In this document: one piece after another, positions 12,916-24,211 of the stretch | Layout of the letters: every line of letters begins with the position of its first letter | How positions within the stretch are numbered: the first letter of the stretch is position 1 | DNA from: a virus | IMG/VR virus record: IMGVR_UViG_3300043418_000120 | Span: 109,881 to 173,880 of that record | Length of the DNA stretch: 64,000 bases | Direction: 5' to 3' (one strand) | The notes under the pieces: model-generated | Told to the model about the DNA's origin: nothing | The model's database searches: none | What the model saw: only the letters and a program-made list of their open reading frames with translations | Made by a program: the position numbers and the translations under genes

Positions 12916-13218
12916 ATGAAGAAGTTTCTAGTTTTACTGTTGGTTGGTTTGAGTTTTGCGGCTCAGGCTCAGCATTATCATGGTGATCATTTTCATCGCG
13001 GAGCCTACTACAACTGGGCTGCTCCAGCAATCATTGGTGGTGTTATTGGATACAGTATGGCTCAGCGCCCTACTACTGTAGTTGTCCAACAGCCACCAGT
13101 CTACGTTCAACAACAGCCAGTCTATGTTGATCGTCCAGGTATTCCTTACGGATACCGTTATGAGAATGTATTGGATGCGAACTGTGGCTGCTACCGAGTA
13201 GTCCTAGTTCCAAACTAA
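12916..13218 (+). CDS. secreted Pro/Val-rich protein
   Basis: signal peptide ending AQA; QQPPVYVQQQPVYV repeat. Confidence 0.7.
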   Translation: MKKFLVLLLVGLSFAAQAQHYHGDHFHRGAYYNWAAPAIIGGVIGYSMAQRPTTVVVQQPPVYVQQQPVYVDRPGIPYGYRYENVLDANCGCYRVVLVPN

Positions 13219-13221
13219 TTG

Positions 13222-13524
13222 TTGTAATCCCTTCAAAGCGAAGGACTTCTGGACGCGGGTTCGACTCCCGCCATCTCCACCACAAGCGCATTGGCGTAGT
13301 ATGAGTACTCTAAAACTCGACTGCGAAAATCTTAGTTCTAGTGTGCTTTTGATGGGGATGCCATGGTTTCGACAGGGGTAGATAGTAGAGACGGCAACAC
13401 GGTAGGCGATGACCGTTAATCAAGCAAATCAAAATAAATGCAAACGAAAGTTCATTTTTGATGGCAGCCTAATCGGCACCATCTGAGTTTCGGTGGGTGT
13501 ACTTGGAAACAGAAACACCTACCA
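13222..13524 (+). ncRNA. ssrA: circularly permuted two-piece tmRNA; tag ANESSFLMAA
   Basis: acceptor piece with T-arm ending CATCTCCACCA (13282) precedes coding piece GGGGATG (13354); G3.U70; tag frame 13440-13472; outer ends approximate. Confidence 0.92.
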
Positions 13525-13525
13525 T

Positions 13526-13533
13526 TATAAATA
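13526..13533 (+). promoter_or_regulatory. T4-type late promoter
   Basis: TATAAATA. Confidence 0.7.
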
Positions 13534-13583
13534 ATTACTTACATCATGAACACACAACTTGATTTACACACACAGGAGTTTAC

Positions 13584-13912: not shown

Positions 13913-14446
13913 TTGAAATATCTAATTTCAATTCTCATTACCATATCATTGTTTGTTATGTTGCTCTTCTCGACAATTCCGTCAAGAGATATATCAACTG
14001 GTATCGTAAGTGTACCTTACCAAAATTTGACTGCTTCTGAAAAGAAAGAAGTCGACTGTCTCGCAGATAACATCTGGTATGAGGCTCGTTCCGAACCTAA
14101 AGATGGCCAAGTGGCTGTCGGTCTTGTCACTCTCAACAGAGTCAAGTCTAAGGTGTTCAACAGTAGTGTTTGCGGTGTCGTACATCAAAAAACAAAAACT
14201 ACTTGTCAATTCACATGGCTATGCGAAGGTAAGAAAACTATCACCGCAAAGCAACGTGAACTGTATGAAGATGTCCGTGACATCGCTCTTTATGTATACT
14301 TCAATCATGCTGTGATTGAGGATCTTACTGGAGGGGCTATATACTATCATGCCGATTACGTGTCTCCTGGCTGGAAAAAGCTGAAGAAGACTACGAAGAT
14401 CGGTCGCCATATCTTTTACACCGACCCGAAAGTGACTAACCTATGA
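13913..14446 (+). CDS. SleB-like cell wall hydrolase (Hydrolase_2)
   Basis: CLA.NI.YEAR.E, AV..V.LNRV, CQF.W, YYHADYV.P.W, IGRHIFY motifs. Confidence 0.88.
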   Translation: MKYLISILITISLFVMLLFSTIPSRDISTGIVSVPYQNLTASEKKEVDCLADNIWYEARSEPKDGQVAVGLVTLNRVKSKVFNSSVCGVVHQKTKTTCQFTWLCEGKKTITAKQRELYEDVRDIALYVYFNHAVIEDLTGGAIYYHADYVSPGWKKLKKTTKIGRHIFYTDPKVTNL

Positions 14447-15003
14447 TGGAAAAACTCAATATCAACCTGAACGCAGGTGGTGATACCAAACAAAACTTCT
14501 TGTTGGTAATGGACGAAATTTCTTTGTCCTCTTGTAAGCAGATGGTCGAATGGATCTTTGCGTGTAACTTCAGCGAAGAGCAGTTTGATATTCTGAACCT
14601 TGTTATCTGTAGTCCAGGTGGCGATCTGAACGCAGCGTTTGCTGTTATCGACACCATGAAGGGCAGCTCTATTCCAATCCGAACTATCGGTCTTGGTCAA
14701 ATTGCTTCTGCTGGTCTATCAATCTTCATGGCTGGTACAGCTGGTCAACGTATCCTGACACCAAACACTTCTATCCTCTCGCACCAATACTCATGGGGAT
14801 CGTTTGGTAAGGAGCATGAACTTATTGCTCAGGTGAAAGAATTTGACTTGACTACGAAACGCCTGATCGCGCACTACAAGAAGTGCACTGGTCTTGAAGA
14901 AGACGTTATCCGTGAGAAACTGTTGCCACCACAGGACGTTTGGCTAAGTGCTGCTGAAGCAAAGAAGCTGGGTGTTTGTGACGTTGTGAAGGACTTATAC
15001 TAA
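14443..15003 (+). CDS. clpP: ClpP-like protease subunit
   Basis: SPGG, IASAG (catalytic Ser), HQ, D.WLSA.EA..LG..D motifs. Confidence 0.85.
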   Translation: MMEKLNINLNAGGDTKQNFLLVMDEISLSSCKQMVEWIFACNFSEEQFDILNLVICSPGGDLNAAFAVIDTMKGSSIPIRTIGLGQIASAGLSIFMAGTAGQRILTPNTSILSHQYSWGSFGKEHELIAQVKEFDLTTKRLIAHYKKCTGLEEDVIREKLLPPQDVWLSAAEAKKLGVCDVVKDLY

Positions 15004-16928: not shown

Positions 16929-17046
16929 TTGACATTAATCCAGTGTAGTTGTATAATAACAGTGTTGGGTTTGATGTTAGGACTAAGTATAACCTTGGAG
17001 TCAGTAGGGTTATCTGCTTGACATTAAACATGAACTGAGGTATAAT
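16929..17046 (+). promoter_or_regulatory. two tandem sigma70-type promoters
   Basis: TTGACA-17-TATAAT at 16929-16957 and 17018-17046. Confidence 0.8.
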
Positions 17047-17052
17047 TGATCC

Positions 17053-17349
17053 ATGATGAATGAAAGACAAACAGAGGTGATGCGAATCGCCCAAGAAGAG
17101 TCAGCTGAAATCATCCAAGCAATCAGTAAGGTTCTGCGTTTCGGTAAAGACAACTGTCATCCAGACAGCACTCAAACGAACGCTGAGCATCTAGCTGAAG
17201 AAGTTGGTGACATGCTGTGTATGATCGAACTACTGATCGAAACAAAGGTTGTTAGTGAGAGTCAGGTACAGAAGGCTGCGAGGTTGAAGCGCAATAAACT
17301 TCGGAAATGGTCAAAAATATTTTCCGAAAAAGATGAAAATTGTGCTTGA
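17053..17349 (+). CDS. MazG-like nucleotide pyrophosphohydrolase
   Basis: EESAEIIQAISK and EEVGD motifs. Confidence 0.8.
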   Translation: MMNERQTEVMRIAQEESAEIIQAISKVLRFGKDNCHPDSTQTNAEHLAEEVGDMLCMIELLIETKVVSESQVQKAARLKRNKLRKWSKIFSEKDENCA

Positions 17350-17374
17350 CTGTTATAAATAAAAGAGGTATAAT
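17346..17374 (+). promoter_or_regulatory. sigma70 promoter with nested T4 late promoter
   Basis: TTGACT-17-TATAAT with TATAAATA (17354-17361) inside the spacer. Confidence 0.8.
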
Positions 17375-17409
17375 AGATACCTCTAAACGAATTAAGGATT
17401 TAATCTTCA

Positions 17410-17529
17410 ATGTTACTCTGTCAAAGTTATCACCAGCCGATGAAAGCCACTTTGTGGTCTGGAGATACACGCACAGCAGTATCATTCGGCTCAAATCCAG
17501 AGATTAGTGTAGGGGTGTTAGAGGTATAA
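17410..17529 (+). CDS. putative attenuator leader peptide containing all 20 amino acids
   Basis: SD TAAGGA; MLLCQSYHQPMKATLWSGDTRTAVSFGSNPEISVGVLEV; 31 distinct codons in 39. Confidence 0.7.
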   Translation: MLLCQSYHQPMKATLWSGDTRTAVSFGSNPEISVGVLEV

Positions 17530-17553
17530 GAAGTCCAAACTTCAAACCAAAGC

Positions 17554-17590
17554 GCCCCAAGAGATGAAAGTCCTTGGGGTTTTTTGTTTT
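17554..17590 (+). terminator. intrinsic terminator of putative attenuator
   Basis: GCCCCAAG-a-GAT-GAAA-GTC-CTTGGGGT followed by TTTTTGTTTT. Confidence 0.8.
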
Positions 17591-17600
17591 GTAGCTTGAA

Positions 17601-17870
17601 TAACCTTACAGTTCGTAAGGTTATCGCTTGACAATAAATTGAATGTCAGGTATAATTGATGTTCTGATGTTGATAAGGTGCTAAAGTTAAAGACCCTACG
17701 GTTCGTAAGGTTACTAAAATTAGTGCTTGACTTAATTGATGACTTCAGTTATAATTGAGGTTCTGATGTGATGTGCTAAGATTGAAGTGCGAAAATTGCT
17801 GAATTGCTATGAACTTCGAAAATAGTGCTTGACATTATAACAGAAATAAGGTATAATTCTTAGTTCTGAT
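17601..17870 (+). promoter_or_regulatory. three tandem sigma70 promoters in about 100-bp units
   Basis: -35/-10 at 17628/17651, 17727/17750, 17829/17852; each followed by GTTCTGATG; palindromes at 17601 and 17693. Confidence 0.8.
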
Positions 17871-17895: not shown

Positions 17896-17970
17896 GCACG
17901 ATTCGTCTATCGGTTAGGACGCTGCCCTTTCAAGGCGGAAAGACGAGTTCGATTCTCGTATCGTGTACCA
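17896..17970 (+). tRNA. tRNA-Glu(TTC)
   Basis: cloverleaf, CT-TTC-AA loop, encoded CCA. Confidence 0.9.
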
Positions 17971-18203
17971 TATTAAAGCGTATTGGGTTACCAATACCAG
18001 TAGGTGGCTATGATGGTTCGAAGATGCTCGACGGAGCACGCTGTCATAGTTACAAGAAAGACGGAAACGCCCTTGCGGTGGAAACAGTAGTCGCGCTGGA
18101 TTAGGTTGGCTTGTAATGTGTTTGATGACCAGTCGCTAGACGTTAGCGTGGTAAGCCTACGGTGTAGGTTGTTGTCATTCATCCCAGTATGTTTTAATAT
18201 GGT
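17971..18203 (+). ncRNA. unknown structured RNA closed by a 21-bp stem
   Basis: ACCATATTAAAGCGTATTGGG pairs with CCCAGTATGTTTTAATATGGT; internal hairpins. Confidence 0.55.
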
Positions 18204-18207
18204 AAAT

Positions 18208-18283
18208 GCGGGTAAGGTGTTTATGGATACACACGAGTCTTCCAAACTTGAGTAGACCAGATCGTTACTGGCTACCCGCTCCA
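18208..18283 (+). tRNA. tRNA-Gly(TCC)
   Basis: CT-TCC-AA loop; variant T-loop ATCGTTA; CCA. Confidence 0.85.
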
Positions 18284-18293
18284 TGTTTTGTAT

Positions 18294-18368
18294 ACCCGAT
18301 TAGCTCAGAGGTAGAGCACTCGCTTGATAAGCGATAGGTGAGTGGATCGTTACCACTATCGGGTACCA
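18294..18368 (+). tRNA. tRNA-Ile(GAT)
   Basis: TT-GAT-AA loop; variant T-loop ATCGTTA; CCA. Confidence 0.88.
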
Positions 18369-18373
18369 TGTTT

Positions 18374-18436
18374 TAGGATAGGTTCTGCAAATAACACTGC
18401 TAACTTTGGATGTCTAGCGACAAAAACTATCCTGTT
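18374..18436 (+). ncRNA. CWGCAA-scaffold ncRNA 1
   Basis: TAGGATAGGTTCTGCAA...AACTATCCTGTT terminal stem. Confidence 0.65.
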
Positions 18437-18442
18437 GATTTT

Positions 18443-18527
18443 GGAAGTGTAGGAAAATTGGTAACCCCAGGAGACTGTAAATCTTCCGCCTCTGGCATTG
18501 TTGGTTCAAGTCCAACCTCTTCCACCA
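18443..18527 (+). tRNA. tRNA-Tyr(GTA)
   Basis: CT-GTA-AA loop, long variable arm, CCA. Confidence 0.88.
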
Positions 18528-18660
18528 ATTTCGCTGTCGAGAGGCAGTGATACGTTCCCAACATTAGGGTTGGGCGTGTTAAAGTTCGGGTCTTCACCAG
18601 AAGGTCTTTTCGGTTGCCACGATAGAGCAACGGCTAAAGTTCGTAATGCCACAAATTCAT

Positions 18661-18736
18661 GCTTCGTTAGCTCAATTGGGAGAGCACTGCACTGTCACTG
18701 CAGAGGTAAGGGGATCGAAACCCCTACGAGGCGCCA
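18661..18736 (+). tRNA. tRNA-Asp(GTC)
   Basis: CT-GTC-AC loop, G73, CCA. Confidence 0.9.
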
Positions 18737-18740
18737 ATTT

Positions 18741-18811
18741 TAGGATGAGTTCTGCAACAAAAATAGAACACCAAACTTTTAATTTGACATGTTCGTCAAA
18801 ATCATCCTGTT
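18741..18811 (+). ncRNA. CWGCAA-scaffold ncRNA 2 with Lys(TTT) anticodon stem-loop
   Basis: TAGGATGAGTTCTGCAA...ATCATCCTGTT; CAAA-CT-TTT-AA-TTTG at 18772-18786. Confidence 0.65.
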
Positions 18812-18817
18812 GTATTT

Positions 18818-18892
18818 GGGGGCAGTAGAGGGCTACGGGTAACCCTTGCAAGGTTGCTGTCTAGATCGGTTCGATACCGACGGTCTCCACCA
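18818..18892 (+). tRNA. atypical tRNA-Ala(TGC)
   Basis: CT-TGC-AA loop, G3.U70, reduced D-arm, CCA. Confidence 0.65.
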
Positions 18893-18979
18893 AGAGCAAA
18901 TAGAAGTCTTGTTTTGATGCATGGCTTCTCAATGTTTGTTAGTTTCAATGGGTGTTATAGAAACTACCACTAATTTTAT

Positions 18980-19054
18980 GCCTTGTTAGCTCAGTGGTAG
19001 AGCTCCCTCCTTACAAGTGGGATGTCGGCGGTTCGAACCCGTCACAAGGTACCA
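18980..19054 (+). tRNA. tRNA-Val(TAC)
   Basis: CT-TAC-AA loop, CCA. Confidence 0.9.
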
Positions 19055-19059
19055 AACAT

Positions 19060-19151
19060 GGAAAGTAATGCAGCTGGGATGGTCCGGCGACCAGCCTTGA
19101 AAACTGGGTTCTCAGAAATGGGATGGGGTTCGACTCCTCTGCTTTCCGCCA
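19060..19151 (+). tRNA. tRNA-Ser(TGA)
   Basis: CT-TGA-AA loop, long variable arm, GCCA. Confidence 0.85.
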
Positions 19152-19156
19152 AAATT

Positions 19157-19231
19157 GCGTTGTAAACTTTGACGATGAAGTCTCGGCTCTTAACCGATGG
19201 GAAGATAGTTTGAATCTATCACGACGCACCA
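19157..19231 (+). tRNA. tRNA-Lys(CTT)
   Basis: CT-CTT-AA loop, CCA; divergent D and T loops. Confidence 0.75.
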
Positions 19232-19293
19232 AAGCCTCGCCATGACACTCGGCGTATAATGAGATAAGTGATGTGTTCCGAAGATTACTTTGG

Positions 19294-19368
19294 GGTGGGT
19301 ATAGTGTAGTGGTAGCACCCAACTCTGTGAAAGTTGTAGTATGGGATCGTTACCCATTATTCACCCCA
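19294..19368 (+). tRNA. tRNA-His(GTG)
   Basis: CT-GTG-AA loop, G-1:C73, T-loop ATCGTTA. Confidence 0.85.
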
Positions 19369-19380
19369 AAGTAATTTTGT

Positions 19381-19456
19381 GCCTCTGTAGTTCAACGGAT
19401 TAGAATACGGTGCTACGAACGCTGAGACGGGAGTTCGATTCTCTCCAGAGGTACCA
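19381..19456 (+). tRNA. tRNA-Arg(ACG)
   Basis: CT-ACG-AA loop, CCA. Confidence 0.9.
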
Positions 19457-19467
19457 AAAAGATTTTC

Positions 19468-19541
19468 GCCCTATTAGTATAATGGCATTACACCTGTTTT
19501 GTAATCAGGTTACGGCAGTTCGATTCTGTCATGGGGCACCA
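19468..19541 (+). tRNA. tRNA-Thr(TGT)
   Basis: TT-TGT-AA loop, CCA. Confidence 0.85.
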
Positions 19542-19550
19542 GTTGACCAT

Positions 19551-19671
19551 TAGGTTCATTTCAGCAATCAAAAATAATCTTTCTGTAAAAAAGAGGGTCT
19601 GGGTTCGAATCCCAGCGGTGAGTTGGTCTTCACTGTGGTGTAATGGTAGCACGAAAAAAGTTGAACCTGTT
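19551..19671 (+). ncRNA. CWGCAA-scaffold ncRNA 3 carrying a complete circularly permuted tRNA-Tyr mimic
   Basis: TAGGTTCA..CAGCAA; anticodon arm (GTA), T-arm, sealed acceptor stem, D-arm; TGAACCTGTT. Confidence 0.75.
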
Positions 19672-19677
19672 TAACAT

Positions 19678-19752
19678 ATCGCATTCGACTTCAGGTGAGG
19701 TCATCAGCCTTTCAAGCTGACTAGACGGGATCGTTACCCGTATGCGATACCA
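19678..19752 (+). tRNA. tRNA-Glu(TTC), second copy
   Basis: CT-TTC-AA loop, T-loop ATCGTTA, CCA. Confidence 0.82.
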
Positions 19753-19760
19753 AGAATTAT

Positions 19761-19839
19761 TCCGTAGAATCCAAGCAAGGTGCAAGGACGTGACTGTTAA
19801 TCACTGATTAGACTGGTTCGATCCCAGTGTACGGAGCCA
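19761..19839 (+). tRNA. tRNA-Asn(GTT), divergent
   Basis: CT-GTT-AA loop, GCCA; atypical D-arm. Confidence 0.72.
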
Positions 19840-19992
19840 GTATTAGTCGGAGTAATTAACCGAAAAGTAAATAGTAGACGATCTCGCCATCTCGGTCGTC
19901 TTTGCAGTGTATACTGCGTCAGCTTGGTTGCACAAGTTGAGAAACACTGGGGTAAGAGTCCCAATTGATCGATGTGCACTAATTGTTTTCGT

Positions 19993-20068
19993 GGGGGTAT
20001 AGCTCATCTGGTAGAGCAGGTGCTTTGCAAGCATCAGGTGGCGGGTTCGAGTCCTGTTGCCTCCACCA
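19993..20068 (+). tRNA. tRNA-Ala(TGC)
   Basis: canonical cloverleaf, G3.U70. Confidence 0.92.
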
Positions 20069-20077
20069 AGTTTTTAT

Positions 20078-20151
20078 CTGGGTATAAGATAGTGGTAGTC
20101 TCCGAGCCTTGGATGCTTGAAGCGGGAGTTCGATTCTCCATTCCCAGACCA
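20078..20151 (+). tRNA. tRNA-Pro(TGG), divergent
   Basis: CT-TGG-AT loop, C1-G72, ACCA. Confidence 0.75.
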
Positions 20152-20160
20152 ATTTTTTGT

Positions 20161-20238
20161 TGGGGTATCGCCTAGTCTGGCCTAAGGCAACGGTCTTTGA
20201 AATCGTCATCATCAGTTCGAATCTGATTACCCCTGCCA
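20161..20238 (+). tRNA. tRNA-Gln(TTG)
   Basis: CT-TTG-AA loop, GCCA. Confidence 0.88.
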
Positions 20239-20257
20239 GTTTTTAAGGAAATTCAAA

Positions 20258-20311
20258 ATGAAAGTATTAAAACGAAAACCCCGAAAGTGTCGAAAGCGCA
20301 TGGGTCTATAG
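20258..20311 (+). CDS. Lys/Arg-rich 17-aa mini-ORF ending inside tRNA-Lys(TTT)
   Basis: SD TAAGGA; MKVLKRKPRKCRKRMGL; stop TAG at tRNA positions 8-10. Confidence 0.4.
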   Translation: MKVLKRKPRKCRKRMGL

Positions 20312-20378
20312 TTTAACGGCAAAAACATCTGGCTTTTAACCAGTAAGACTCTCGGTTCGAATCCGAGTAGACCCACCA
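20302..20378 (+). tRNA. tRNA-Lys(TTT)
   Basis: CT-TTT-AA loop, CCA. Confidence 0.88.
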
Positions 20379-20479
20379 TATAAAAACATACTTGCTGAAG
20401 TTGGTTCAGTTAGACAGGGAGATCCAATTGCCTATGTCGTTGAGTGTGTTTTTATATGGTATATAAGTATATACTACAT

Positions 20480-20554
20480 TCCAGTGTAGCACAGCGGTAG
20501 TGCAGTTGACTGTTAATCAATTGGTCGTTGGTTCGATCCCAGCCACTGGAGCCA
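20480..20554 (+). tRNA. tRNA-Asn(GTT)
   Basis: canonical cloverleaf, GCCA. Confidence 0.92.
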
Positions 20555-20563
20555 AATTTTTAT

Positions 20564-20637
20564 AGCGGGTAGGGTGGTCACCACTCCAGTCTCATAAGCT
20601 CGGAGCATCGGCAGTTCGAATCTGTCACCCGCATCCA
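20564..20637 (+). tRNA. atypical tRNA(CAT), Met/fMet-like
   Basis: CT-CAT-AA loop, A1xA72 mismatch, reduced D-arm, CCA. Confidence 0.6.
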
Positions 20638-20641
20638 TTTT

Positions 20642-20700
20642 TAGGATCCGTCCAGCAAATTACCTAATTCAACTTGTAATTGAAAAATAAGGATCCTGTT
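20642..20700 (+). ncRNA. CWGCAA-scaffold ncRNA 4 with Thr(TGT) anticodon stem-loop
   Basis: TAGGATCCGTCCAGCAA...GGATCCTGTT; TTCAA-CT-TGT-AA-TTGAA at 20668-20684. Confidence 0.7.
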
Positions 20701-20707
20701 GATATTT

Positions 20708-20783
20708 GCCCTTATAGCTCATCTGGTAGAGCAACCGCCTTGTAAGCGGTAGGTGGTCAGTTCGAGTCCGACTGAGGGCACCA
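20708..20783 (+). tRNA. tRNA-Thr(TGT), second copy
   Basis: canonical cloverleaf. Confidence 0.92.
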
Positions 20784-20791
20784 TTTATAAT

Positions 20792-20868
20792 CGGAATGTA
20801 GCGCAGTCTGGTAGCGCACCTCGTTTGGGACGAGGGGGTCCAAGGTTCGAATCCTTGTATTCCGACCA
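20792..20868 (+). tRNA. tRNA-Pro(TGG)
   Basis: TT-TGG-GA loop; canonical. Confidence 0.92.
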
Positions 20869-20885
20869 ACACTTTGAAAGATAAC

Positions 20886-21149
20886 ATGACAACAATTAAC
20901 CCTATTAAGAACAACTTGTACATTGCTCAGAACAAGAAAGAAGATACCACTGAGATGGGCATCATTATTTCTAATGGTCTTGGTAACACTGCCTCTGCGT
21001 ATGTGTTGGCTATTGGTCCTGACATTACAGAATGTAAAGTAGGTGATACAGTTTATGTTGACTGGTCAAAGAGTTACCCAGTAACTATTGACGGTGCGCA
21101 GCGTGCGATGATCAAGATTGATCATGTGATTGCTGTCGTTGAAGAATAA
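20886..21149 (+). CDS. GroES-like co-chaperonin
   Basis: P...L.I, T..GII, VLAIGP, KVGDTV, ..IAVVE pattern. Confidence 0.75.
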   Translation: MTTINPIKNNLYIAQNKKEDTTEMGIIISNGLGNTASAYVLAIGPDITECKVGDTVYVDWSKSYPVTIDGAQRAMIKIDHVIAVVEE

Positions 21150-21150
21150 T

Positions 21151-21226
21151 CTCGCCATGGTCTAACGGATAAGGCAACGGTCTTCTACACCGTCCGATGG
21201 GAGTTCGAATCTCTCTGGCGAGGCCA
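21151..21226 (+). tRNA. tRNA-Arg(TCT)
   Basis: CT-TCT-AC loop, GCCA. Confidence 0.9.
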
Positions 21227-21233
21227 AAGATTT

Positions 21234-21339
21234 TAGGTTAGGTTCTGCAAACAAAATTAGCTGGTTCGATTCCAGCATTATCCACCCAGTCGAAAGACAC
21301 TCGGATGATGTGCCACGGTGGCAATCAAACTAACCTGTT
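21234..21339 (+). ncRNA. CWGCAA-scaffold ncRNA 5 (YrlA-like: T-arm, closed acceptor stem, D-like arm)
   Basis: TAGGTTAGGTTCTGCAA; GCTGG-TTCGATT-CCAGC; ATTATCC/GGATGAT; AACTAACCTGTT. Confidence 0.7.
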
Positions 21340-21348
21340 GTATTATAA

Positions 21349-21425
21349 GCGGATGTGATGGAATTGGTATACGTGTTGGTCTTAGAAGCCAAATTTTGTG
21401 AGTTCGAGTCTCACCATCCGCACCA
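21349..21425 (+). tRNA. tRNA-Leu(TAG), short variable arm
   Basis: CT-TAG-AA loop, CCA. Confidence 0.85.
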
Positions 21426-21436
21426 ATTTTTTTTAT

Positions 21437-21512
21437 GCCTGGATAGCTCAGTTGGTAGAGCGGCAGATTGAAAATCTGCGCGTCGGCGGTTCGATCCCGT
21501 CTCTAGGCACCA
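21437..21512 (+). tRNA. tRNA-Phe(GAA)
   Basis: canonical cloverleaf. Confidence 0.92.
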
Positions 21513-21518
21513 GTTTAT

Positions 21519-21595
21519 TACGGAGTAGTTCCAATTGGCAGAACGGCGGATTCCAAATCCGTTAGTTGGGGGTTCGAGTCCCTCCTCCGTAGCCA
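21519..21595 (+). tRNA. tRNA-Trp(CCA)
   Basis: TT-CCA-AA loop, GCCA. Confidence 0.9.
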
Positions 21596-21601
21596 GATTA
21601 T

Positions 21602-21677
21602 GGTGATGTAGCTCAGTTGGCAGAGCAGCTCCTTCATACGGAGACGGTCGGGAGCTCGGATCTCTCCATCACCACCA
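21602..21677 (+). tRNA. tRNA-Met(CAT), elongator-like
   Basis: TT-CAT-AC loop; variant T-loop CTCGGAT. Confidence 0.82.
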
Positions 21678-21837
21678 AGTTTTGAGATAGACGTTTGGAT
21701 GAGTCCCTTATGTGCTAGTGCCCTATTCTTGAGCATGACACACCAGTAGCGGCATAAGGTTGTTAAACTCTCCTATACGAGACAAGCCCAGCGAGTCCTT
21801 GAGAAAGATAGTTGGAACTCTCAAAAACCTATAATAT

Positions 21838-21911
21838 GCGTGTGTAGTTTAATGGTAAAATCAGACGTTGCCAACGTTTAGTTGAGAGTTCGATTCTCTC
21901 CACCCGCACCA
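21838..21911 (+). tRNA. tRNA-Gly(GCC)
   Basis: TT-GCC-AA loop, CCA. Confidence 0.85.
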
Positions 21912-21923
21912 AACATAGTCATA

Positions 21924-21972
21924 CCCCTACGCAATGTAGGGGCTTTACTTTAATTCAGATTTAAGGTATAAT
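21924..21972 (+). promoter_or_regulatory. palindrome plus sigma70-type promoter
   Basis: CCCCTAC-N5-GTAGGGG then TTTACT-17-TATAAT. Confidence 0.7.
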
Positions 21973-21978
21973 AGAGTT

Positions 21979-22479
21979 ATGACAAAAGAAAACAGATTTA
22001 TTGAAAACGTATCCCGCGATGATGCTCGCAAGGGTTGGCACATGGACGCAGGTCCCAATGCTATGCTGATTCAGATCAGTGACCCAGCAGGTGGATTCCC
22101 CGATCCAACTTACAAGTTCAAAGAGATTCACCAGTTTGAATTCTTGGATGCAGAAGATGGCGATCGTTTCCCTGATGAGTGCATGATTCAAGATGAGCAA
22201 GCTGTTGAGTTGGTTCGCCTTCTGCAACATGCCCTTGATAATGCGATGAACGTAGTTGTTCATTGCCATGCTGGTATCTGTCGTAGCGGAGCAGTGGTTG
22301 AAGTTGGAGTCATGATGGGCTTCACTCCTACTGATCGTTTCCGCCAACCAAACCTTCGCGTAAAGCATCGAATGATGAAAGCCTTGGGATGGACATACGA
22401 CTCTGCCGAGAAGCATAGTTCTACTGGTGGCTACATCTCCAACGATGGGATTTGGTTACCAAACAATTTTGGAGTTTGA
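21979..22479 (+). CDS. CX5R (dual-specificity/tyrosine) phosphatase-like protein
   Basis: VHCHAGICRSG motif. Confidence 0.85.
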   Translation: MTKENRFIENVSRDDARKGWHMDAGPNAMLIQISDPAGGFPDPTYKFKEIHQFEFLDAEDGDRFPDECMIQDEQAVELVRLLQHALDNAMNVVVHCHAGICRSGAVVEVGVMMGFTPTDRFRQPNLRVKHRMMKALGWTYDSAEKHSSTGGYISNDGIWLPNNFGV

Positions 22480-22480
22480 T

Positions 22481-23056
22481 ATGGCTGATGTATTTTTCAC
22501 CAGCGACACGCACTTCGGACACATGGGTGTTTGTAAGTTTATGCGCGACGATGGTGTGACGAAGTTGAGACCATGGGATAGTCCTGAAGAAATGGACGAA
22601 GCCATGGTGAAGATGTGGAATGAAACCGTCAAGCCGACAGACAAAGTTTATCATTTGGGTGACGTAGTCATCAATCGAAAGGCTTTGAAGATTATGTCGC
22701 GTTTGAATGGTGATAAGGTTTTGATCAAGGGAAACCATGACATTTTTAGGTTGGAAGATTACACGGAGCATTTCCGCGATATCCGCGCCTACCATGTCAC
22801 CAATGGTATGATCTTGAGTCATATCCCAGTCCACGAAAGTAACTTGTATCGTTTCGGTACAAACATCCATGGTCATACTCATAGTAACCGTGTGATGACA
22901 ACATCAAGGTTTATGCGTCAAGAAATCATTGACCCACGATACCAATGTGTTTGCGTTGAACAAACAGACTTTAAGCCAATCGCGTTTGAAGATGTTATGC
23001 AACGTATCAAAGATGAAGGTGGTACTGTTGGTTTCAGAACCAAGAGTAACAACTGA
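22481..23056 (+). CDS. calcineurin-like metallophosphoesterase
   Basis: SDTHFGH, LGD, GNHD, SH.P, HGHTH motifs. Confidence 0.9.
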   Translation: MADVFFTSDTHFGHMGVCKFMRDDGVTKLRPWDSPEEMDEAMVKMWNETVKPTDKVYHLGDVVINRKALKIMSRLNGDKVLIKGNHDIFRLEDYTEHFRDIRAYHVTNGMILSHIPVHESNLYRFGTNIHGHTHSNRVMTTSRFMRQEIIDPRYQCVCVEQTDFKPIAFEDVMQRIKDEGGTVGFRTKSNN

Positions 23057-23150
23057 TTTTGCTTGCAAGCTGATCTCGGTGCTTCCGTGCTCCCGAGCGA
23101 GAATAGCTGATATTGTTTCAGCAAGACGGAGCCAAATTTAGGAGAACAGA

Positions 23151-23288
23151 ATGTCGAAAGCAAAAGAGACACTCGAAAAGGCGTACGGCTCTGTTCCCAA
23201 AGAAGTTGGGTTCTATTTCGTAGTGCCCTTCGAGTTTAGAGGTATAAGATTCTATCTTTTGAAAATCAAGAGATGGTTTACAAGATAA
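23151..23288 (+). CDS. small hypothetical protein (45 aa)
   Basis: SD AGGAG; MSKAKETLEKAYGSVPKEVG... Confidence 0.55.
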   Translation: MSKAKETLEKAYGSVPKEVGFYFVVPFEFRGIRFYLLKIKRWFTR

Positions 23289-23290
23289 TT

Positions 23291-23380
23291 GGTGCGGTCC
23301 CATAATGGTATTGGAGCGGTTTGCTAAACCGTCGACTTACGAAAGTAGGTTTCTGAGTTCGAGTCTCAGTCGCACCGCCA
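23291..23380 (+). tRNA. tRNA-Ser(GCT)
   Basis: TT-GCT-AA loop, long variable arm, GCCA. Confidence 0.88.
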
Positions 23381-23385
23381 AGTTT

Positions 23386-23610
23386 TAGGATACATTCAGC
23401 AACACAAAATGCAATGAAAGCCTCGTGTCGGTGGTTCAAATCCATCCCCCTTCACTTACCATACCACCTTGACGGTGATACTCAGAATTTGAAACTCTGC
23501 GGCTAATGGTAAGTTGCGTAACAACCAGTGCCTAAACAAGATAGGAAACGCTGGTGTGGTAAGTGAAGGGGTAGCTCAGTTTGGTAGAGCAGAGTAAAAC
23601 GTATCCTGTT
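23386..23610 (+). ncRNA. CWGCAA-scaffold ncRNA 6 (YrlA-like, greatly extended acceptor stem)
   Basis: TAGGATAC..CAGCAA; T-arm GGTGG-TTCAAAT-CCATC; CCCCTTCACTTACCATACCA/TGGTGTGGTAAGTGAAGGGG; D-arm TAGCTCAGTTTGGTAGAGC; GTATCCTGTT. Confidence 0.75.
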
Positions 23611-23623
23611 GAAAGAGAAAATT

Positions 23624-23860
23624 ATGTGGGAAATTAAATTTGAAAACACAGTGCTGAACGCAAGTCCAACACTGTCTGATGCGATAACTTTTGCGAAAGG
23701 TTATGGTAAGTTCGTTACTATCACTGACGGCACAACAGAGATTGTTGGTGCATTCGGTGTTGCTGCTGTTGAGAATGCGGTTCTACCAGACGGTGAGTCG
23801 TATACTTGGACTATGCGCCGCGACGAAACGCATCGAAGCTGGAAAAAGAAAAGTGTTTAA
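23624..23860 (+). CDS. hypothetical protein
   Basis: ATG 23624; EIVG.FGV and LPDG..Y.W motifs. Confidence 0.65.
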   Translation: MWEIKFENTVLNASPTLSDAITFAKGYGKFVTITDGTTEIVGAFGVAAVENAVLPDGESYTWTMRRDETHRSWKKKSV

Positions 23861-23861
23861 T

Positions 23862-23938
23862 GCGGATGTGATGGAATTGGTATACGTGCTGGCTTCAAAA
23901 GCTAGATTCTGTGGGTTCGAGTCCCACCATCCGCACCA
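23862..23938 (+). tRNA. tRNA-Leu(CAA), short variable arm
   Basis: TT-CAA-AA loop; near-duplicate of the Leu(TAG) body. Confidence 0.85.
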
Positions 23939-23942
23939 AATT

Positions 23943-24017
23943 GGGCTTATAGCTTAATGGTAAAGCAGTCGACTCATAATCGGTTGAGTCTTGGTTCAAT
24001 TCCAAGTGAGCCCACCA
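23943..24017 (+). tRNA. tRNA(CAT), probably Ile2 (lysidine type)
   Basis: CT-CAT-AA loop; GGGCTTA acceptor resembles bacterial Ile2. Confidence 0.75.
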
Positions 24018-24049
24018 AGAAATTAAGGCGATAAATTTTTAAAGAATAT

Positions 24050-24127
24050 GGCTGGATGGCAGAGAGGTCAAATGCAACGGATTGCAAATCCGTAAAGTCG
24101 TCGGTTCAAATCCGACTCCAGCTTCCA
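24050..24127 (+). tRNA. tRNA-Cys(GCA)
   Basis: TT-GCA-AA loop, U73. Confidence 0.9.
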
Positions 24128-24133
24128 AACAAT

Positions 24134-24211
24134 GCGGCAGTAGTGCAATTGGTAGGAGACAAGAGACTTAAACCCTCTACAGTGTGGGTTCGAATCCCAT
24201 CTGCCGCACCA
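24134..24211 (+). tRNA. tRNA-Leu(TAA), short variable arm
   Basis: CT-TAA-AC loop, CCA. Confidence 0.82.

Follow-up and report, generated by a model that had tools for sequence, protein, structure and literature searches.

A candidate ribosome-mediated attenuator with a leader of all 20 amino acids ahead of a phage tRNA array

Why phages carry sets of transfer RNA (tRNA) genes, and how these sets are controlled, is a long-standing question. It is raised here by a stretch of 64 kb (the window), which is the final part of IMG/VR record IMGVR_UViG_3300043418_000120, a viral metagenome genome of 173,880 base pairs (bp) that is rated complete by CheckV and belongs to an uncultured freshwater phage of 174 kb. 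A short open reading frame (ORF) with its own promoter and an intrinsic terminator stands ahead of a tRNA array spanning all 20 amino acids (29-30 tRNAs). An earlier note on this DNA had read the element as a leader-peptide attenuator, and that reading is supported by the comparisons described below. The promoter, Shine-Dalgarno sequence, ORF, G-run pairing and terminator that the note had placed in this region all hold where they were checked. We put at roughly two in three the probability that the element is a ribosome-mediated transcription attenuator heading the phage tRNA array, with a leader that retains all or almost all of the 20 amino acids. What carries this reading is a conserved ORF, two mutually exclusive and covarying helices, a maintained amino-acid set and the placement of the element, each established by sequence comparison.

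The leader family and its RNA switch

The element is present at 26 loci with DNA and at one more, L137, all on contigs of uncultured phages; GenBank phage records, searched at both the DNA and the peptide level, returned no similar element. The first homologue, L103, was obtained by a search of metagenome contigs with the MazG-like protein encoded upstream of the leader. Its order is that of the window, with a MazG gene followed by a promoter, a 39-codon ORF, an identical terminator and tRNA-Glu. Further members were collected by matching DNA patterns, by searching 1.8 billion proteins with a profile, by a search based on words and by exact look-up. P0006, a 421-residue repeat protein matched by the profile, was discarded as spurious, and G007 gave only a weak match (E 0.017). 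A BLAST search with the leader against the records of 50 relatives returned generic terminators only, two matches later proving to be sub-family 2.

Two sub-families can be distinguished. Sub-family 1 comprises 15 distinct peptides of 37-40 residues; another 28, of 49-54 residues, make up sub-family 2 and the L137 branch. Common to both are an N-terminal pattern, a Trp, the motifs D-x-R-T and P-E-I, and a Gly.

The earlier note had proposed that homologous leaders be sought near tRNA arrays, and at every locus with DNA the element does lie ahead of or inside such an array. The tRNA genes are 33-521 nucleotides (nt) downstream, the exception being L130, on a contig that continues for only 330 nt after the terminator; at L137 the element sits inside the array. 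The phages of five relatives that were checked encode tRNAs for 19-20 amino acids. The distant MazG relatives L004-L007 have a tRNA directly after the MazG gene and no leader, and the element is therefore not universal among phage tRNA arrays.

The end of the ORF takes part in a predicted antiterminator hairpin, the stability of which was matched by none of 200 shuffles (Table 1). The 5' half of this hairpin consists of the last five sense codons and the stop codon, and its 3' arm, AGCGCCCC, includes the CCCC of the terminator 5' arm. Through this common CCCC the antiterminator and the terminator are mutually exclusive. The G-run pairing between GGGGTGTT (17512-17519) and AGCGCCCC (17551-17558) comprises 8 bp, two of them G-U, and forms the base of a hairpin in three parts. 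Folding of the whole transcript gives the antiterminator form as the minimum free energy structure and the terminator form as the centroid. Antiterminator arms were taken from RNAfold output; extraction by script was used only for terminator stems and for the register of the shared core (CCCC/CCCU).

In every member of sub-family 1 the antiterminator has the same three helices, at -19 to -20.5 kcal/mol (-14.8 in L126), with an apical loop that varies in length and sequence. The terminator of this sub-family is invariant, including its loop, at about -19.3 kcal/mol, within a range of -13 to -20 for terminators overall. In sub-family 2 the antiterminator reaches -23 to -28 kcal/mol and the terminator loop is not conserved. 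Here the ORF segment AGGGUCC(UU) is paired to (AA)GGACCCU, and the ACCCU of the latter begins the terminator stem.

Both helices are kept among the homologues via compensatory changes, a check that had been suggested along with the attenuator. All 73 cells of helix P1 are paired; one pair has changed on both sides, from A:U to G:C in the window, and two other changes affect one side only. Among L090, L091 and L128 there is covariation in the distal terminator stem. Between the sub-families the common segment changes from CCCC to CCCU, with AGGG replacing GGGG in its two partners; such a three-way change is what two competing helices would predict.

A long imperfect hairpin is also predicted within the ORF, joining the region of the start codon to codons ~24-26. 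Its covariation score is 0.135 versus 0.057 (0 of 500 shuffles), with 10 cells double-changed versus 3.7 expected. This hairpin excludes the antiterminator arm, and it may limit re-initiation, so that only the first ribosome translates the leader, or serve as a pause signal. A possible 1:2-like pairing of the transcript 5' end with the G-run hinges on the inferred start site.

In the mechanism that we propose, transcripts would begin at the leader promoter, or at two promoters further upstream, and carry the 39-codon ORF. The antiterminator is transcribed first and would be the default fold, the end of the ORF pairing with a segment ~30 nt downstream and capturing the CCCC of the terminator. 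A ribosome that reaches the end of the ORF in time would unwind the 5' half of the antiterminator, upon which the terminator would form and transcription would stop. Were the ribosome delayed or stalled upstream, or never loaded, the antiterminator would stay in place and transcription would read through into the tRNA genes. As all amino acids are encoded 5' of the antiterminator arm, read-through would increase when almost any charged tRNA runs short, and the element would measure decoding capacity in general and adjust the full tRNA set of the phage accordingly. The P-E-I motif ends 7-9 nt 5' of the antiterminator arm. The unwinding edge of a ribosome lies ~11 nt past the first P-site base; given this edge, a ribosome stalled no further than the Ile of this motif would leave the arm wholly or mostly free. 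That the ORF is translated, that its translation is kinetically coupled to transcription and that the outcome responds to tRNA shortage is what we infer from this arrangement.

Amino-acid completeness of the leader peptide

The 39-codon leader of the window contains 20 of 20 amino acids by codon 32, with 29 distinct codons in those first 32 and 31 of 39 overall, as the earlier note had counted. The chance of such a set was gauged within the 173,880-bp genome. Its six frames contain 1,629 ORFs of 32 codons or more, of which only the leader itself is complete within the first 32 codons and four are complete within the first 39, giving a base rate of 0.06-0.25%. For a single sequence the 39-codon cut proves little alone, as it corresponds to roughly one chance match per window. 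Since one window could yield a complete ORF by luck, the case rests on the homologues.

All 20 amino acids are found in 39 of the 43 distinct peptides (37-54 residues). Counted only up to the P-E-I motif, 32 of 41 peptides are complete; six are without Val only, two without Cys and one without Trp. The peptides of sub-family 1 have 9-12 amino acids as singletons, use no amino acid more than about five times, and contain Ala at 1-3 of their 37-40 residues. The singletons A, P, Q, K, Y and F shift columns and are almost never lost; L113 shows such a shift for Ala and Pro, the L118 clade for Ala, the window for Tyr and P0011 for Phe. Lys is always kept in at least one of two Lys/Arg columns, and Gln at one of two sites. 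The amino-acid diversity anticipated for homologues is largely borne out, with compensated moves of singleton residues.

When columns were shuffled among seven clade representatives of sub-family 1, all seven were complete in 2e-5 of trials. A second null fixed the sharing pattern of derived states and redrew only the identity of the derived residue, weighted by BLOSUM62. Under this relabelling, P was 3.5e-4 for 13 of 13 complete peptides in sub-family 1 and 6e-4 for 14 of 15, and none of 10,000 trials on the joint set reached the observed 38 of 41.

Another complete ORF was met outside the family. A Cys-rich, zinc-ribbon-like frame of ~51 residues, located beside the transfer-messenger RNA (tmRNA) in L091 (1800-1960, minus strand) and in L011, also happens to hold all 20 amino acids, and it illustrates that completeness is much less rare at 50 residues or more.

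The leader frame is maintained, and its peptide drifts. The start codon is kept in all members, the ORF is open in every one of them, indels are in frame or occur as compensating pairs, and the stop codon always lies within the 5' half of the antiterminator. Pairwise ratios of nonsynonymous to synonymous changes (pN/pS) in sub-family 1 are 0.5-1.4. The last five codons of L120 and L126 are read in another frame than in the L103 type, through a one-base deletion and a later insertion, and this frame change leaves the RNA string around the G-run and the position of the stop codon in the hairpin unchanged. Poor peptide conservation had been expected of such a leader; the expectation agrees with the pN/pS values and the altered C-terminus, and it does not extend to the short motifs W, D-x-R-T and P-E-I, which persist. 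Selection appears to act on the composition of the peptide and not on its sequence, which would be a rare case.

Counter-evidence and rival explanations

Several observations weigh against the reading of the element as an attenuator that senses all 20 amino acids. Four natural peptides are each without one amino acid (P0011 without Val; P0018, P0031 and L137 without Cys), and the L137 phage encodes a tRNA-Cys. Six peptides of sub-family 1 have no Val before the antiterminator arm; in five of them (the L118 clade, L125 and L120) Val occurs only in or at the arm, and the sixth, P0011, has none. The relabelling null is not significant for sub-family 2 alone (P 0.19), because its rare residues occupy conserved columns. 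The covariation of P1 within sub-family 1 alone is thin, being reached by 52 of 500 shuffles. RNA structure constrains synonymous sites and inflates pN/pS, and the conserved short motifs are not required by a pure composition sensor. A match of leader codons to the phage tRNAs was considered and set aside, as 35-37 of 39 codons are readable versus 81-95% genome-wide, which is no excess. Finally, the regulatory weight of the switch in the window may be modest, given the three promoters that follow it. The idea that a missing amino acid mirrors a missing phage tRNA was also ruled out, the phages checked encoding both Val and Cys tRNAs.

One rival is a translation-coupled attenuator in which completeness itself is unselected. 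Such a leader would report only whether a ribosome arrives soon enough, as a sign of general coupling or translation stress, and would descend from a chance-complete ancestor whose set has since been kept by other constraints, for example RNA structure or peptide motifs. The four incomplete peptides fit this account, as does sub-family 2, where completeness is explained by conserved columns. RNA helices lock much of the ORF, and Val at codon 38 in particular is dictated by helix P2, so that its redundancy is not evidence for sensing. What the account does not anticipate is the repeated loss with replacement of singletons in sub-family 1 (P 6e-4 to 2e-5), or that two sub-families only ~30% identical, with Cys, Tyr and Phe at different positions, should both be complete, at the base rate given above. 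We regard unselected completeness as unlikely.

The locus could instead be an ordinary small protein gene with a strong promoter and a terminator of its own, whose 39-residue product is functional and whose stop-codon hairpin is incidental or stabilises the mRNA. Gene callers do annotate the frame as a hypothetical protein, the motifs W, D-x-R-T and P-E-I persist in both sub-families, and most loci of sub-family 1 have a promoter after the terminator. Against a constrained protein stand the pN/pS values, a C-terminal frame that differs among clades and the lack of any match to a Pfam family. The 3' arm of the hairpin is moreover common with the terminator and subject to the three-way covariation, and the tRNAs of L120 and sub-family 2 are without another promoter. 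A small protein gene is, in our judgement, distinctly improbable.

Very little weight is given to the proposal that the terminated transcript of ~210 nt is itself the functional product, as a stable and possibly dual-function small RNA for which the attenuator-derived rnTrpL offers a precedent (PMC6614838), or that the terminator only insulates the tRNA promoters from upstream transcription: the transcript is structured and the terminator with its loop is invariant across sub-family 1, but the loop is unconserved in sub-family 2, Rfam has no match, and the open frame, the complete amino-acid set and the antiterminator covariation would be left unexplained.

Locus layout and known systems

Under the attenuator reading, the features of the locus are arranged as in Table 1.

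Table 1. Features of the leader locus, in coordinates of the window
Feature	Position	Strand	Details
Two sigma70-type consensus promoters	16929-16957, 17018-17046	+	12/12 matches each
MazG-like pyrophosphohydrolase gene, 98 amino acids	17053-17349	+	PF03819, E 1.6e-4
Leader promoter: TTGACT 17346-17351, 17-nt spacer, TATAAT 17369-17374	17346-17374	+	11/12 matches
Palindrome AGAGGTAT-N5-ATACCTCT (GAGGTAT-N5-ATACCTC), 7-8 bp, spanning the -10 box	17364-17384	n/a	conserved in sub-family 1
Shine-Dalgarno sequence TAAGGA, 11 nt 5' of ATG	17393-17398	+	AAGGA at similar spacing kept in sub-family 1
Long imperfect hairpin within the ORF	17409-17486	+	-21.4 kcal/mol, z -1.4
Leader ORF, 39 codons and stop, ATG at 17410	17410-17529	+	all 20 amino acids by codon 32
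Antiterminator hairpin	17512-17558	+	-18.9 kcal/mol, z -4.78
Intrinsic terminator: core stem 17555-17561/17573-17579, A-tract/U-tract extension, U-rich tail	17548-17591	+	-19.7 kcal/mol, z -4.79
Three consensus promoters between terminator and first tRNA	17628-17656, 17727-17755, 17829-17857	+	consensus match
tRNA array, first gene tRNA-Glu(UUC) at 17896	17896-24211	+	29 by ARAGORN and tRNA-Ser(UGA)

The MazG-like gene is the upstream neighbour of the leader throughout sub-family 1, with conserved synteny. The two promoters ahead of it drive this gene, and their transcripts continue through the leader and the terminator. Transcription from the leader promoter itself probably starts at ~17379-17382. 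The spacer of this promoter, TATAAATAAAAGAGG, is kept across relatives, and the palindrome over its -10 box is found at the same place in L103, L112-L127 and L133. Together they suggest a candidate operator, a site for a dimeric repressor specific to the leader promoter; the 3' half of the palindrome could alternatively pair with the antiterminator G-run. Rfam gave no matches in 17346-17600 at E up to 1, leader models and the T-box included. A nested late promoter, TATAAATA, had been proposed in the earlier note. The motif is present at 17354-17361 and occurs four times in the window versus 1.4 expected, so that its assignment to a late-promoter class is unsupported. At the inferred transcript start a further segment, CGATGAATGAAAA, is conserved (L103 2704-2727 and the matching region of L112, L118 and L120). 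It opens short ORFs in varying frames, and in P0002 the segment is in frame with the leader.

The position of the switch relative to other promoters varies among loci. With three promoters between its terminator and the first tRNA, the switch of the window could govern only part of the transcription entering the array. The caveat to this effect in the earlier note applies to the window and does not carry over to L120 and most of sub-family 2. Two such promoters are present in L113 and L119 and one in most of sub-family 1; in L103 and L114-L116 the post-terminator promoter has a weaker -35 box. At L120 the terminator and tRNA-Glu are 33 nt apart with no promoter between them, and five of the six sub-family 2 loci likewise have none before the tRNAs. 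L128 has three tandem promoters ahead of the leader, with its next one 1.7 kb further down. Judged from their promoters, L120 and the promoterless sub-family 2 loci offer transcription no evident way into the first tRNA block other than read-through of the terminator.

Other elements surround the switch. Just 5' of two of the post-terminator promoters of the window, a repeated hairpin or palindrome of the form CC(C/T)TAC-N5-GTAAGG occurs at 17601-17622 and 17693-17712. In sub-family 2 the terminator is directly followed by a Shine-Dalgarno sequence and a conserved ORF of ~54 residues (L128 3233-3397 and 3400-3700; also L090, L091, L131 and L137). Between this ORF and the first tRNA lies a conserved RNA of 150-300 nt that appears to be structured. 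Rfam has no match for the ORF or the RNA.

The tRNA array was earlier counted at 33 genes. ARAGORN finds 29, and one further gene, tRNA-Ser(UGA), can be read at ~19060-19150; it has a long variable arm and the anticodon loop CUUGAAA, was missed by ARAGORN, and is scored by Rfam as weakly tRNA-Sec-like (33 bits). The stretches 13158-13563 and 14443-15003 of the window encode a permuted tmRNA of betaproteobacterial type (Rfam 146 bits) and, less than 1 kb away from it, a ClpP-like protease, which suggests that the phage invests heavily in translation quality control. Among the 49 tRNAs of another phage, the 320-kb G023 (L142-L144), ARAGORN labels one as Pyl that has the anticodon CUA. This gene may encode an amber suppressor, which would hint at recoding of TAG in that phage.

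Several features of the element are those of the amino-acid-operon attenuators. Like trpL, hisL, leuL, thrL, pheL and ilvL, it has a promoter-proximal short ORF with a ribosome-binding site, the end of which lies in the 5' arm of an antiterminator. This antiterminator has one segment in common with an intrinsic terminator. Which of the two forms would depend on where the ribosome stands, termination being favoured when it has reached the stop codon. The distance from stop codon to terminator, ~60 nt in the phage element, is similar in trp. Unlike these attenuators, the phage leader is not enriched in one amino acid and uses each of the 20 about once or twice, and the genes downstream are phage tRNAs and not biosynthetic enzymes. 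No clear 1:2 anti-antiterminator was found in the phage element, and an untranslated leader should therefore give read-through instead of termination. Attenuators of this kind have no intervening promoter, a feature absent in the window and present in L120 and five of the six sub-family 2 loci. As read here, the element works as a member of the trp/his class, yet it fails the codon-enrichment hallmark of that class and matches no curated model. By analogy, its nearest published relative in logic is the upstream ORF (uORF) of mycobacterial whiB7, with which, to our knowledge, it has no sequence relation.

The whiB7 uORF of Mycobacterium smegmatis contains 19 of 20 amino acids. Trp has one codon in it, and starvation for Trp gives a weaker response once this codon is removed, so that a single codon for an amino acid can be enough (PMC10274678). 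It resembles the phage element in its broad composition and in having an antiterminator and a terminator, and it senses general translation stress, its composition setting the starvations that are sensed (PMC10274678). The uORF is 25-40% alanine, variable in amino-acid content, and controls a transcription factor in Actinobacteria (PMC10274678). In the phage element, by contrast, the set is complete and apparently maintained, there is no Ala bias, and a phage-borne switch gates tRNA genes.

T-box riboswitches likewise couple tRNA charging to terminator read-through ahead of translation-related genes. A T-box requires no ORF and makes direct contact with a single uncharged tRNA, whereas the phage element, which has no T-box match, would sense charging via the ribosome. 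In the literature searched, no attenuator of tRNA genes or of phage tRNA arrays was found described. Phage tRNA sets have been linked to the replacement of tRNAs that are depleted or cleaved during infection (PMC10264068; PMC11555353; PMC11464382). The likely cargo of the element is such a full phage tRNA set, as in this counter-defence work, the titles and abstracts of which concern the tRNAs themselves and mention no attenuator (PMC10264068; PMC11555353; PMC11464382). The element may be tied to anticodon-nuclease (tRNA-cleaving) defence, as the earlier note proposed.

Whether selection keeps all 20 amino acids so that the phage monitors all decoding, with any depletion of host tRNAs raising the output of its full tRNA set, seems to us an even question. 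Such depletion could come from starvation, host shut-off or tRNA-cleaving defence, and the element would then be a self-adjusting counter-defence sensor built on the principle of the trp attenuator. If this is true, phage tRNA arrays would gain a built-in demand sensor in a compact element of ~250 nt, and a textbook mechanism would be widened from the control of single pathways to a gauge of whole translation.

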